DNA of 44,509 bases. Source: a virus. The stretch lies in UHGV virus genome UHGV-0169625, one strand, 5' to 3'. Positions 4,588 to 8,023 of this stretch are shown here, piece by piece. Every line of letters begins with the position of its first letter. Position 1 is the stretch's first letter. Position numbers and translations under genes: made by a program. The notes under the pieces are model-generated. The model made no database searches, was not told where the DNA came from, and saw only the letters and a program-made list of their open reading frames with translations.

Positions 4588-4803
4588 ATGCAACCATCTG
4601 AACTAGGCATCCGTGTAGAAAAACGCCGTAAAGAACTCGGCATCTCCCAGCGCCGTCTGGCGGTGCTGACCGGGGTTTCCCAGGGCGCAATTAACCAGCT
4701 GGCACTTGGGGTAACCCAGGACGTCCGCCCGGCAACGCTGTTTAAACTGGCGGAAGTGCTGGAGGTAGACGCCAAGTGGCTGGCGCTAGGTGAAGGGGCT
4801 TAA
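4588..4803 (+). CDS. XRE-family (Cro/CI-type) helix-turn-helix transcriptional regulator
   Basis: 71 aa; ISQRRLAVLTGVSQGAINQLALG is a classic HTH_3 signature; AGGAG SD; the only plus-strand gene inside the minus-strand replication block, divergent from operator-bearing promoters. Confidence 0.8.
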   Translation: MQPSELGIRVEKRRKELGISQRRLAVLTGVSQGAINQLALGVTQDVRPATLFKLAEVLEVDAKWLALGEGA

Positions 4804-4820
4804 CGCCCCTTTCTTTTTAC

Positions 4821-7061
4821 CTATTCCAAATCCTCTTCTGTCACTACCAGCATTTCATTCGGTTCGTATATTGTCTTCGGTCTTAGTCTATCCCCTATTC
4901 TTTCAGGTATACGATACGTTCTCGGTACTACTTCGCCATTAGCATCACAGCCTAGCATTAGTTCACCATCTTTCAGCATTTTATCAAGATGGGTGTTAGT
5001 CACAGAAAAGTCACCGGAACGGGCCACTATCTGCTGCTGAGTAAAACCGCGACCTGTGTCATCTGACTGTTGCAGGTCTTCCAGTGCCGAAAGTATCGAC
5101 TCCTTCCTTACTTCATCCCTGCCGCGTTTAACTTCTTCCTTTACTTTTTGTTTACCTTCGTTAGTTAACCCTTCTTCCCGCTCCTTCTCCTCGTCAGTTT
5201 TGAACGGCTCGAAGCCCCACGGCATCAGAACAAGCGCCTTGTGTGGTTCCGGCAGGTCGAGGTTTACGATTGTGCCGTATTCCTCTGTGCTGCCCAGGAA
5301 CTCAACAGCACGGTACTCTTTCGGCGGTGGTGCTTCACGGAACTGTACAGACTCCAACACCATGCCAACCGTTTTCTGTTGAGGGCCGTGCTTAAATTTT
5401 GAGTGGTATACGTTTATCTGACGGTCGGTTGCGCGTTCAATTGTCAGTTCCACGTCGACCCCAGCATACAACGCCCCGCTGCCACGGGCTTTCTTTCCAC
5501 CTTTCGGTGTATGGTGGACAACACCCACCGCGGCTTTGGTTGCGTCGCGTACTTCTTTCAGGATGGCGATAACCTTACCCATGCCGATTGCCGTTGATGA
5601 ACTGTTCTCGTCGAACTTATCAATCGTCAGGGCCAGTGTCTGGTTGAGAGTATCGAACGCGACCATGCCGATGGGTTCGCCACCCGCAGTTTCTCGCATT
5701 AGCTTAATCAGGCTTTTCAGTTTGCCAACTTCGCCCATATCGATGACATGTACATAATATTTACCTTCCTCGCCGTATTTAGCCGCGAGTGCATCAATAC
5801 GGGTGCGTGTGGCAGCACCGCCCTCGCCGTCAATATAGAAATGGTGGCAACGCTGTGTATCAGCGCCGGCAAACCGGTACCCGGCGGCGCTCAGGTACAT
5901 CATCCCCAGCGTATAGAAGGATTTGTACGTGCCGGATTCCCCGACGATGTCCCAGATGCAATCCGAGGGCATGTACCCTTCAACGACGAAATCAGCCTTT
6001 ACCGGTTCAGGTAACTCGTCCTCCTCTGAGCCTTCGTCATCTTCCAGGTCGTCCAGGCTGCATGAAACGGACTCTCGCGCACCCCAACCGATAGCCTCTG
6101 CTACTTCACTGAATGGCAGCCCGGTCGCATCGCACGCATACTTCCACACCTCTTTCGGTGACATGCCTTCGGTTGCCGTAATGTCGGTGTCGTGAATCAT
6201 GGTTACGTTTGGCGCGGCGTAACCCTCTCGCGGAAAGCACAGCAGGAAATCATCCGGGCGTGGCGTCGGGTCGCTGTAGTTTTCTGCGTGTTCTGGTGTG
6301 GCAGGCATTTTAAGGCCGCGGGGTGTCATAATACCGCCATACTCGAATGCCAGTGCTTCAAACGCATCGGTAAACGCAGTGCGCAGTTCTTCCGGTATCT
6401 GGTAATCCGATGCGCTGCTAACGTCAACGGCGGGGATGCCTTCCAGCAGTTCTTCCGGGTCAATCAGGTCGTTGCGGCGCGACCAAATAACGGTAGAGCC
6501 AACCGGCGGCAGGTACATCGGCTGCGACAGAGTGAACCCGCTGCGGTCAGCGCCCATGCCTTTGAAGAAGTGCTCGAGCAATCCGTGGCGAACGCGGATG
6601 ATGTCGCCACCTTCGACCGGGCGACCAAGCGGCATAACGACGCGAAAGCGCGGTGACCCATCGGTATGTGATGCCGTGGTATAGAGGCACATGGCCAGGC
6701 GGCTGCGCTTAACCAGGTGCACAGCTTCCTGATACTCTTCCGGCGTTGCACTGTCGAAGTCCAGGTAGGCCAGTGATGATTTGCTTACAGAGGCGTCGCA
6801 GCGATAGAAGAAGCCTTTACGCGCTTGCTTAAAGTCCCCGGTTTCCTGGTCTTTTACGGTGCTGTGTGTTGAGTCGCACGCGGCTGTGATATAGCCGGGC
6901 GCGGTCTTAGGGTTAACCCCATCACGAACAGCATCGAGCGGCCGGATTAACTCTTTCAGGTCGTCCAGTGTTGCCGTGTGTGTGGTTCTGACGTTTATAT
7001 CCTTTTTCTCTGCCCGCGCGTTGCGACGAGACCACGAGTAGGATAAAATTACATCGGACAT
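4821..7061 (-). CDS. putative primase/replicative ATPase (prim-pol-like N-terminal domain plus P-loop-like ATPase domain)
   Basis: 746 aa; LAYLDFD (DxD) and TASHTDG resemble archaeo-eukaryotic primase motifs; central GESGTYKS P-loop-like and VHHTPKGG segments; ends in VTEEDLE; assignment by motif only. Confidence 0.5.
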   Translation of the reverse strand: MSDVILSYSWSRRNARAEKKDINVRTTHTATLDDLKELIRPLDAVRDGVNPKTAPGYITAACDSTHSTVKDQETGDFKQARKGFFYRCDASVSKSSLAYLDFDSATPEEYQEAVHLVKRSRLAMCLYTTASHTDGSPRFRVVMPLGRPVEGGDIIRVRHGLLEHFFKGMGADRSGFTLSQPMYLPPVGSTVIWSRRNDLIDPEELLEGIPAVDVSSASDYQIPEELRTAFTDAFEALAFEYGGIMTPRGLKMPATPEHAENYSDPTPRPDDFLLCFPREGYAAPNVTMIHDTDITATEGMSPKEVWKYACDATGLPFSEVAEAIGWGARESVSCSLDDLEDDEGSEEDELPEPVKADFVVEGYMPSDCIWDIVGESGTYKSFYTLGMMYLSAAGYRFAGADTQRCHHFYIDGEGGAATRTRIDALAAKYGEEGKYYVHVIDMGEVGKLKSLIKLMRETAGGEPIGMVAFDTLNQTLALTIDKFDENSSSTAIGMGKVIAILKEVRDATKAAVGVVHHTPKGGKKARGSGALYAGVDVELTIERATDRQINVYHSKFKHGPQQKTVGMVLESVQFREAPPPKEYRAVEFLGSTEEYGTIVNLDLPEPHKALVLMPWGFEPFKTDEEKEREEGLTNEGKQKVKEEVKRGRDEVRKESILSALEDLQQSDDTGRGFTQQQIVARSGDFSVTNTHLDKMLKDGELMLGCDANGEVVPRTYRIPERIGDRLRPKTIYEPNEMLVVTEEDLE

Positions 7062-7119
7062 GTTGTATTTCCTTCAGCAAGTAATTTGGCCTCGGCGTTC
7101 ACCGCGTCGGGGCTTTCTT

Positions 7120-7353
7120 TTATTCCAGGTCTTCTAAAGTAGCGGTCATTCCGCGAACTTCAGCAACGGCGCTATATTTCCCGCCAACATTTTTCACGAC
7201 ACCAGATTTAACCAGCACCTTCAACGACCCTTCAATAATGGCTGAACTATAGTACTTAAAATAACTACGGCGCAAGTCAATAACGCTACACGACCCTTTT
7301 TTACGTGTTAACGAAACGACTGCTGTAAATACGCGTGACTGAAACTCGGTCAT
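7120..7353 (-). CDS. hypothetical protein (77 aa), C-terminus LEDLE
   Basis: track ORF, start overlaps upstream gene stop; no domain recognised. Confidence 0.45.
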   Translation of the reverse strand: MTEFQSRVFTAVVSLTRKKGSCSVIDLRRSYFKYYSSAIIEGSLKVLVKSGVVKNVGGKYSAVAEVRGMTATLEDLE

Positions 7354-7520
7354 TTCACGTTCTCCTTAATCCATGCTTCCACTTTCTCCGGGTCAAACGT
7401 ACCTGGCTGACGACGGCCCATAATGCGGATGCAGCAATCCGGGAACTTCCCGCTCTTTAACCAGTTATTCAGCGTGCGACGGGTAACCCCGATACGCTCA
7501 GCTACCTCATTCTGTGTCAT
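7350..7520 (-). CDS. AlpA/Xis-like HTH DNA-binding protein
   Basis: start moved to ATG at 7520 (MTQNEVAERIGVTRRTLNNWLKSGKFP...EAWI) because the predicted -10 overlaps the track start at 7553; GAGGG SD. Confidence 0.6.
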   Translation of the reverse strand: MTQNEVAERIGVTRRTLNNWLKSGKFPDCCIRIMGRRQPGTFDPEKVEAWIKENVK

Positions 7521-7552: not shown

Positions 7553-7581
7553 AGTATACATTGCGAATAATGGGAAATCAA
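7553..7581 (-). promoter_or_regulatory. sigma70-like promoter (leftward) for the minus-strand early operon
   Basis: minus strand TTGATT (7581-7576), 17-nt spacer, TATACT (7558-7553). Confidence 0.45.
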
Positions 7582-7960
7582 ACATAATCGCACCTATTGA
7601 CATTATGAAAATCTTCGTTTAAGGTGCTTCTATATCTTAGTTACTTTGATTCCTGTTCACCTTGTAAAACCGCTTAAAACGCAGCTGCGCGCAGCGCAAG
7701 CAAAGTGTTAAGCGAAAGTTTACTGAACACGAGAATTATCGTAACTTTCCTTCCTAAGTATCTCCGGTTGCCCTGGGCAAGCTCTATTCACATCGGCAGC
7801 ATATCTCTTAAGTATCTGATTTTCTTAATGTGCCGTAGATTCGCAACCGTAAAAATGTAACGATTATTGGGCAGGCTTAGGGCCTGCCCTTTAGTTACCA
7901 AGTAATAAGAATAAAGGCACAACCTTCCCAGAAGAATCACAACGGCAACGTAACTATCTC

Positions 7961-7989
7961 TTGCACGCCCCAACATAATAGGATACTAT
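7961..7989 (+). promoter_or_regulatory. sigma70-like promoter (rightward) with embedded palindromic operator
   Basis: TTGCAC (7961-7966), 17-nt spacer, TACTAT (7984-7989); 7975-7992 reads ATAATAG-gata-CTATTCA; about 35 nt upstream of ATG 8024. Confidence 0.5.
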
Positions 7990-8023
7990 TCACTTATCGA
8001 AACGAGACAGAGGAGTGAGGGTT

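Follow-up and report, generated by a model that had tools for sequence, protein, structure and literature searches.

We analyzed in silico the 470-nt gap at positions 7554-8023 of the virus genome UHGV-0169625 (44,509 nt; "the window" below means this whole stretch). The genome belongs to a Kagunavirus (Guernseyvirinae), an E. coli siphophage, and its nearest records are phiWAO78-1 and Bas73, with 93-97% identity across the control region. The gap is conserved non-coding DNA, and the sequence type of its 3' part, denoted module A, co-varies with the type of a C-terminal cassette in the phage helicase-primase. Coupling of this kind is the hallmark of an initiator specificity domain paired with its cognate site, and module A is thus proposed as the core of a replication origin. 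An origin was among the explanations that the initial annotation had offered for the gap, and the origin-like co-variation speaks for it. Our favoured explanation, which we trust about as much as we doubt it, is that module A is a replication origin, which the helicase-primase tail recognizes and a structured non-coding early transcript traverses. The main features are as follows.

4821-7061, minus strand: helicase-primase gene, 746 aa (AAA_25, PHROG 3228).
4881-5150, minus strand: C-terminal cassette of the helicase-primase, about 85-90 aa, of type CTD1 in the window; delimited by alignment, predicted winged helix.
7786-7960, plus strand: module A, 175 nt, the highly conserved 3' module and candidate origin core.
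7791-7800, in module A: CATCGGCAGC.
7810-7819, in module A: AAGTATCTGA.
7831-7842, in module A: TGCCGTAGATTC.
7869-7889, in module A: hairpin.
7890-7920, in module A: AT-rich stretch.
7940-7955, in module A: CAACGGCAAC-GTAACT.

We computed the coupling over 34 loci with a complete helicase-primase gene, using the adjusted Rand index (ARI). In the alignment, the cassette is flanked by conserved sequence on both sides. Its three types share about 50% identity, compared with 96-97% in the N-terminal and middle domains that make up the remainder of the protein. Cassette CTD1 was found with module type A or B in 18 of 18 loci, CTD2 with type K in 9 of 9, and CTD3 with type S in 5 of 7. Cassette and module, which lie about 2.7 kb apart, therefore agreed in 32 out of 34 loci, a figure that expresses correlation only. 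The ARI between cassette and 3' module was 0.83, and no other segment exceeded 0.31, the value for the type of the 5' domain of the gap; the N-terminal and middle helicase domains gave 0.11, the 700 nt to the right of the predicted promoter P2 gave 0.04, and the 700 nt past the cassette gave -0.07. The two cassettes co-assort while the intervening and flanking DNA does not, which argues against a clonal-frame or linkage explanation. The recombinants L139 and BEU33 have the same middle block with different flanks, and the coupling was retained in them. Among GenBank records, the 20 with module S were exactly the 20 with CTD3; CTD2 was found in 32 of 32 module K records, and K in 32 of 34 CTD2 records. 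The RP180-like phages (L168, L172, L175, and L200) carry a different helicase body with the same CTD3 cassette and S module, which indicates that the cassette moves between helicase backbones.

Primase and helicase are encoded on one polypeptide, as seen from the match to PHROG 3228 (E 2e-296), N-terminal matches to primase PHROGs, and AAA_25 at residues 354-522. A protein homologue search with the cassette returned six fragments only, and we modeled the cassette with AlphaFold2 from a 7-sequence alignment, discarding the single-sequence model (predicted local distance difference test score, pLDDT, of 48). The alignment-based model (pLDDT 75) has a winged-helix topology consisting of helix, strand, helix, helix, and beta-hairpin. 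A profile search of the PDB had linked the cassette to BurrH repeats, but this match was a spurious summed hit and the relationship was rejected.

Module A is 94-96% identical between the window phage and Salmonella Jerseyviruses, while in the same genomes the helicase-primase is 63%, the neighboring 77-aa gene 68%, and the HTH_17 gene that leads the leftward operon 84% identical. As a benchmark rather than the rank of the module itself, an identity of 0.93 marks the 99th percentile of 100-nt segments over the whole genome of Salmonella phage AG11, the top segments being elsewhere. The AG11 module carries a 10-nt deletion. Module A was found at an identity of at least 87% in 340 GenBank records. 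Its conservation stays undiminished for 65 nt beyond the terminator-like hairpin described below, and the lack of a drop at this point is hard to explain if the RNA alone matters. Although non-coding, the gap is strongly constrained.

All Guernseyvirinae examined share the same gap layout. The interval between the promoters P1 and P2 falls into five sequence types (window/Jersey, Shashou/RP180, K1G, Hrm2/Bas70, and SETP13), each with 180-260 nt of non-coding sequence. The types are otherwise unalignable, but all keep P1, a structured 5' domain, the core motif AAGTnnCTGA...TGCCGTA, a GC hairpin, and P2. The motif xAGTATCT was also found in every type. The GC hairpins occupy equivalent positions and are unrelated in sequence (GGGCAGGC, GGGTGGGC, GGTGCC, or CTTGCC). 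The 3' modules are exchangeable and can be grouped into types A/B, K, and S. Recombination shuffles 5' domains and 3' modules separately: K or S modules follow the Shashou 5' domain, and A, B, or K modules follow that of the window. In AG11, the paralogous 3' units A and B stand in tandem, and SETP13 has only B. S-type modules (L153, L154, L161, and others) have a CTCA tandem repeat upstream of the GGTGCC hairpin, mostly of three units and of six in L161, and a TTTCG repeat 3' of the hairpin; both repeats are either iteron-like or slippage-prone.

The initial annotation described the gap as a divergent control region with two promoters. We found both of them to be conserved and add a further rightward promoter.

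7553-7581, minus strand: PL, predicted leftward promoter; -35 TTGATT (7581-7576), 17-nt spacer, -10 TATACT (7558-7553).
7597-7625, plus strand: P1, predicted distal rightward promoter; -35 TTGACA (7597-7602), 17-nt spacer, -10 TAAGGT (7620-7625).
7961-7989, plus strand: P2, predicted proximal rightward promoter; TTGCAC, 17 nt, TACTAT, followed by a ribosome-binding site (RBS) GAGGAG (8010-8015) and ATG 8024.

PL and P1 are sigma70-like, stand back to back, and show the conservation typical of promoters, with fixed hexamers and a free spacer. PL was found by a promoter scan; its hexamers are invariant and its spacer variable among E. coli and Salmonella relatives. In P1, with a predicted start site at about 7632, the -35 and -10 are likewise kept and the spacer varies. 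Each sequence type has a P1 counterpart (TTGACA, TTGACT, or TTGAAA; 16-18 nt; TAAGGT, TAAGTT, TAAGCT, TAAAAT, or TATAAT), and the AG11 record has a promoter annotated at the P1 position. P2 is kept in all types as TTGCAC or TTGTGT, 17 nt, and TACTAT. PL and P1 together take up only 7553-7625, which leaves about 330 nt and agrees with the earlier remark that the gap exceeds what two promoters need. The full annotation table of one relative, AG11, was used for a comparison of gap sizes: there, the corresponding gap measures 620 nt and is by far the largest between genes, about threefold larger than the runner-up of 204 nt. In Salmonella types (L004, L125-L128, and others), a perfect palindrome, GTAACTTCAAGTTAC, directly follows the P1 -10 at P1 +1.

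The sequence downstream of P1 is predicted to form a structured RNA. A structured non-coding P1 transcript is predicted from the conservation of the promoter, covariation on the plus strand, and the terminator, in line with the small transcript that the initial annotation had considered. The RNA features are listed below.

7639-7746, plus strand: rod-like RNA hairpin of about 110 nt, 5' domain of the predicted P1 transcript, from fold and covariation.
7639-7644/7741-7746, plus strand: rod helix a.
7647-7659/7724-7738, plus strand: rod helices b and c.
7660-7663, plus strand: conserved CCUU bulge.
7664-7668/7719-7723, plus strand: rod helix d.
7671-7714, plus strand: variable tip stem-loop, containing the 7680-7689 palindrome.
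7747-7785, plus strand: CU-rich linker; holds the first copy of AAGTATCT (7756-7763) and a small UGCC/GGCA hairpin (7769-7772/7776-7779).
7869-7896, plus strand: terminator-like hairpin GGGCAGGC-UUAGG-GCCUGCCC, dG -17 kcal/mol, with tail UUUAGUU.

Compared with shuffled sequence, the fold of about 7632-7897 gave z = -3.9 on the plus strand and -1.9 on the minus strand. The rod is only 44-59% identical in sequence to the Salmonella version, and its minimum free energy (MFE) architecture was recovered by independent folding in 30 of 31 distinct relatives. We built a covariance model on the E. coli types alone and then aligned all relatives to it. Because this alignment is fitted to the structure, its counts are biased toward the structure, and the independent folds serve as a control. 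In the alignment, 98.7% of the rod pair cells held standard pairs, versus 26-45% when the partners were slid, and 10 of 28 pairs had changed on both sides. The covariation score was 0.341 (at most 0.075 when slid), which none of 500 shuffles reached. G.U cells outnumbered A.C cells by 68 to 3, which indicates a selected structure on the plus strand, as expected of an RNA and unlike a duplex-DNA site. Compensatory changes likewise support a long hairpin in the sequence-unrelated 5' domain of the Shashou type, where pair 34/93 is found as UA, AU, or CG. No Rfam family matched at the gathering score across the whole window; the best sub-threshold match, at 19 bits, covered the terminator only. 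No second copy of the RNA element was found in the window genome. In the Salmonella types, the right arm of the GTAACTTCAAGTTAC palindrome is also the 5' arm of rod helix a, so that the rod can face competition from a small alternative hairpin, which is the MFE choice in L125; E. coli types lack the left arm.

Three motifs that had been singled out in the initial annotation are present as described: the palindrome CGCAGCTGCG at 7680-7689, the hairpin GGGCAGGC-TTAGG-GCCTGCCC at 7869-7889, and the half-site CTATTCACAT at 7784-7793. They differ in what they signify. The 10-bp palindrome occurs in 4 of 31 distinct relatives, about 0.5 such palindromes are expected per 470 nt, and it sits at the tip of a variable hairpin; it is therefore not significant in itself. 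The half-site (CTATTCACA) is specific to the window and reads TTCTCA in relatives. The GC-rich hairpin is conserved, with a compensatory change from C-G to U-A in 6 of 24 relatives, and the chance expectation of an 8-bp GC hairpin in 470 nt is about 0.04. A terminator scan called it on the plus strand only (9-pair stem, five U in the first eight tail bases), and we predict that it forms the 3' end of a P1 RNA of about 265 nt. Strong terminator-like plus-strand hairpins were also observed within the leftward, minus-strand replication operon, at 7088-7114 (between the helicase-primase and 77-aa genes) and at 4792-4812 (right after the helicase-primase stop). These hairpins may be bidirectional or directed against antisense transcripts.

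The neighboring genes frame the gap as follows.

7350-7520, minus strand: HTH_17 gene (excisionase/MerR-type; Pfam HTH_17 E 2e-7 and PHROG 66), the first gene of the leftward operon, with ATG 7520.
7120-7353, minus strand: 77-aa gene (PHROG 5169).
8024, rightward: ATG of the first open reading frame (ORF) of the small-ORF early operon, which in relatives runs on co-directionally into lysis and morphogenesis genes.

The HTH_17 protein is a possible regulator of PL and P1. A small protein-coding gene in the gap is hardly credible. It would account for the hypothetical ORFs annotated there in a few records, although the majority of GenBank records leave the gap unannotated. These ORFs are, in the coordinates of each locus:

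L002 3320-3640: Bas73 (Bas73_0055).
L003 1845-2060: NTEC3 (UDG73278).
L132 1321-1689: Hrm2.
L126 988-1916: TU03.
L157 621-988: Bas70.

They disagree in strand, frame, and length, are disrupted by indels, and look like gene-caller artefacts. The two ORFs internal to the gap in the window, 7705-7860 (plus) and 7788-7976 (minus), had no Pfam or PHROG family match, and both are broken in relatives by indels of 1 nt (in the A-run 7850-7855) and 10 nt (near 7926-7935). Substitutions against two Salmonella relatives showed no 3-nt periodicity, with identities of 72-75% and 78-80% in all three phases; by contrast, identity in the flanking genes falls from 72-77% at the first two codon positions to 40% at the third. 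No conserved Shine-Dalgarno sequence with a start codon was found inside the gap. A conserved gene in relatives, which would have spoken against the initial annotation, was thus looked for and not found.

Our favoured explanation can be outlined as a sequence of steps. PL would express the HTH_17 protein, the 77-aa protein, and the helicase-primase. P1 would transcribe a non-coding RNA whose 5' half folds into the rod (7639-7746) and which then runs into module A; most transcription would end a short distance upstream of P2, at the 7869-7896 hairpin with its U-tract. The winged-helix cassette would recognize module A as a specificity domain, in duplex DNA rather than in the RNA, and the helicase-primase would load and prime there. 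P1 transcription, or the P1 RNA, would help to open or prime the site, as in transcription-activated origins. The position of the gap next to the replication operon also counts for an origin.

Several observations weigh against this explanation. Module A was found with a cassette other than CTD1 in L144, L190, and PQ429079, and OR594180 is a fourth exception to the coupling. The sequences are phylogenetically non-independent, so no P value can be stated for the coupling. The top Foldseek matches of the cassette in the PDB were all winged-helix proteins (H1/H5, PefI, LexA, MarR, and ORC2), but they were weak (E 0.1-0.6), and PDB sequence searches returned nothing specific to the cassette or helicase-primase, with the Rep proteins of Staphylococcus aureus pathogenicity islands (SaPIs) among the unmatched chains. 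The cassette could bind RNA rather than DNA or serve another function tied to the module. No classical iteron array was found in the gap, where CGGCA/TGCCG and GTAAC occur three times each, nor a classical operator array, so that the regulator-binding array suggested by the initial annotation was not recovered. Iterons of the P4 type (TGTTCACC) were rejected, with one copy in the gap and five unclustered copies in the genome. The AT-rich stretch is modest and does not amount to a strong DNA-unwinding element. GC skew switches in the gap and has its minimum there, but this is confounded by the switch in gene orientation at the same place. The U-tract of the terminator is imperfect. Parts of the rightward promoters are weak by consensus: the P1 -10 matches three of six positions, so that P1 is absent from the list of the promoter scan, and P2 matches 7 of 12 with both hexamers weak. 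These promoter calls therefore rest on conservation, and for P2 on position and conservation.

The arrangement resembles several known systems in part. In phage P4, the alpha protein with ori/crr follows the same logic of origin specificity set by a C-terminal domain. The self-loading initiator-helicases SaPI Rep and PriRep5 recognize their origin via a C-terminal winged helix (PMC9371898). As in these proteins, the locus studied here has a primase-helicase polypeptide whose cassette types match the sequence types of the candidate origin, and the C-terminal cassette may likewise be a winged helix. Unlike SaPI Rep, the helicase has AAA_25 as its only Pfam match and is not of the SaPI type by sequence. 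SaPI Reps are SF3/MCM-like, and the AAA_25 family is RecA/RepA-like. The SaPI site lies immediately downstream of the gene, whereas the candidate origin lies 2.7 kb upstream of the cassette, across three genes, does not have the 6-12 opposed iterons around an AT-rich centre, and is embedded in a predicted transcribed, structured non-coding RNA. The locus thus differs from SaPI and P4 in helicase family, position, and the absence of iterons, and it differs from phage c2 in its link to a phage initiator. In the Ceduovirus c2, the origin consists of non-coding DNA that separates divergent gene blocks and extends between the first two early promoters; it is transcribed into a non-coding RNA (PE1-T) and present in several sequence types (PMC7150918). 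The gap has a parallel layout, with PL/P1 at 7553-7625, P2 at 7961-7989, no conserved ORF or RBS between them, and several unrelated sequence types, and a structured non-coding transcript from its distal promoter is predicted. However, the c2 origin replicates a plasmid without phage proteins, while here a phage helicase-primase cassette co-varies with the module, and c2 is a Lactococcus phage unrelated to Kagunavirus in host and phage family. Transcription-primed or -activated origins include ColE1 RNA II, T4 oriF/oriG, and lambda ori activation. The gap shares with them, as an architectural analogy only, a promoter upstream of the proposed initiation zone, a predicted folded transcript, and a predicted 3' end near an AT-richer segment, but neither a G/C-rich stretch apt to form an R-loop nor an RNase H site was recognized in it.

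Other explanations dispense with the origin or move specificity to the RNA. The gap could be purely a leader for transcription control, in which the terminated P1 transcript is read through into the rightward operon of about 29 kb under the action of a phage factor or of the RNA itself; such a factor might resemble Q or AlpA, with the neighboring HTH_17 protein as a candidate, and such an RNA might resemble put. We consider this unlikely, even though a promoter, a non-coding transcript of about 265 nt, an intrinsic terminator, and a long same-strand operon fit it. AlpA acts by such antitermination (PMC7969949). Lambda PR'-6S RNA-tR' with Q and P. aeruginosa AlpA likewise combine a promoter, a short terminated non-coding leader, a long operon, and a nearby gene for a small DNA-binding protein, here the divergently encoded HTH_17 gene, and a -10-like TAnCTT lies at P1 +2 to +7 in both E. 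coli and Salmonella types. However, neither a Q homologue nor a match of the HTH_17 protein to the Phage_AlpA family was detected, and no binding element embedded in the promoter is kept: an AlpA-type site would fall in the P1 spacer, which differs between types whose HTH_17 proteins are about 88% identical. The RNA element has neither a second genome copy nor an Rfam match, and SETP13-type phages have no U-tract terminator. A leader also leaves unexplained why the module type tracks the helicase-primase cassette; the Q and AlpA systems have no link to a replication protein. Alternatively, the helicase-primase tail would read the 3' domain of the P1 transcript or its R-loop instead of duplex DNA, with a structured RNA of swappable 3' modules as the specificity adaptor that directs the replisome to its start site. 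We regard this as improbable; if true, it would mean an RNA-specified origin with matched RNA and protein cassettes recombining among phages.

It is equally doubtful that the P1-to-terminator transcript is a trans-acting small RNA that pairs with host or phage RNAs through its single-stranded motifs UUCCUUCCU, AAGUAUCUGAU, and UGCCGUAGAUUCGCAACCG. The layout of promoter, structure, and terminator is that of a small RNA gene, the primary sequence of the 3' domain is near-invariant across phages of different hosts, and G.U-tolerant changes are biased to the plus strand. On the other hand, conservation runs 65 nt past the terminator, and antisense complementarity within the phage genome was not above chance (11-mers). 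No match was found in 5,426 E. coli genomes, by a BLAST search that is blind to short seeds, and the coupling to the helicase-primase cassette is again unexplained. A DNA operator array for HTH_17 or Cro-like regulators timing PL, P1, and P2, with neither functional RNA nor origin, seems to us more improbable still. It draws on four to five copies of AGTTAC/GTAACT in the gap, on the GTAACTTCAAGTTAC palindrome at P1 +1 in Salmonella types, and on AAGTATCT, which is present twice, 54 bp apart. Yet helix a of the covarying rod has the AGTTAC/GTAACT copies at 7639 and 7741 as its two arms, the palindrome is absent from E. coli types, and compensatory and G.U changes with strand asymmetry are not required of DNA-binding sites.

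For Guernseyvirinae, our literature search turned up neither a mapped origin nor a mapped early promoter or non-coding RNA. Cassette-specified origins, transcribed origins, and terminated leaders are each known as kinds of element, but their combination is not described for Guernseyvirinae in the literature searched. In biocontrol, therapy, and synthetic-phage work on E. coli and Salmonella, Guernseyvirinae (Kagunavirus and Jerseyvirus) are among the most frequently isolated siphoviruses. The proposal of module A as origin is directly testable: the origin would be module A, K, or S, and its reader the C-terminal cassette of the helicase-primase, with matched cassette pairs as natural swap experiments. 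In genome minimisation or rebooting, the seemingly empty 470 bp should be kept and the spurious ORF annotations dropped. The proposal also accounts for a mosaic hotspot and adds a structured RNA family absent from Rfam.

Several further candidates were examined and rejected. A DnaA box at CTATTCACA matches 8 of 9 positions, yet it is specific to the window. A likeness to Tus/Ter around GGTAACTAAAG (core 8 of 10 by eye) is explained by the recurring GTAAC motif. The tip hairpins might have mimicked CRISPR repeats, as the K1G stem CCCCGC/GCGGGG resembles a type I-E repeat, but the tips vary from type to type, so no mimic is fixed. RNA pairing with the start region of the first gene spans 7 bp in E. 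coli types and is not kept in Salmonella types. Two records, MT074484.1 (celemicas) and MT074482.1 (horsemountain), open inside module A, 6 nt apart (at window positions 7849/7850 and 7843/7844, respectively), which suggested a physical end or pac site. Other records of the collection that includes them also end in the gap, at varying offsets, so these ends are probably a re-orientation convention. The genome-reduction study of phage seszw was set aside as evidence for the region because this phage is a Skatevirus. Two database records also deserve mention. A scaffold assigned to Taishania pollutisoli of the Bacteroidota (L158, NZ_JACVEL010000022.1) is about 90% identical to the Jerseyvirus AG11 over several kb, which points to phage contamination of the bacterial assembly. 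CP088689.1, a 44-kb E. coli "plasmid" record matching the P2 region, is probably a Kagunavirus genome.

Two motifs recur throughout the window genome. The decamer CAWCGGCARC occurs in 15 copies, versus 0.54 expected, at 2703, 7791, 7940, 8179, 17092, 18086, 20238, 20861, 24338, 31374, 31562, 32587, 40737, 42317, and 44204. Three copies of the motif lie in the non-coding gap, the inverted TGCCGTAG included. Its core, CAACGGCA, is the commonest 8-mer, with 23 copies in the window genome and 13 in AG11. The motif is found in all reading phases and both gene orientations, which indicates a motif at the DNA level, possibly a priming, loading, or Chi-like signal. AGTTAC/GTAACT occurs in 44 copies genome-wide versus 22 expected, a count that none of 100 shuffles reached, and four of these copies lie within 7639-7955.

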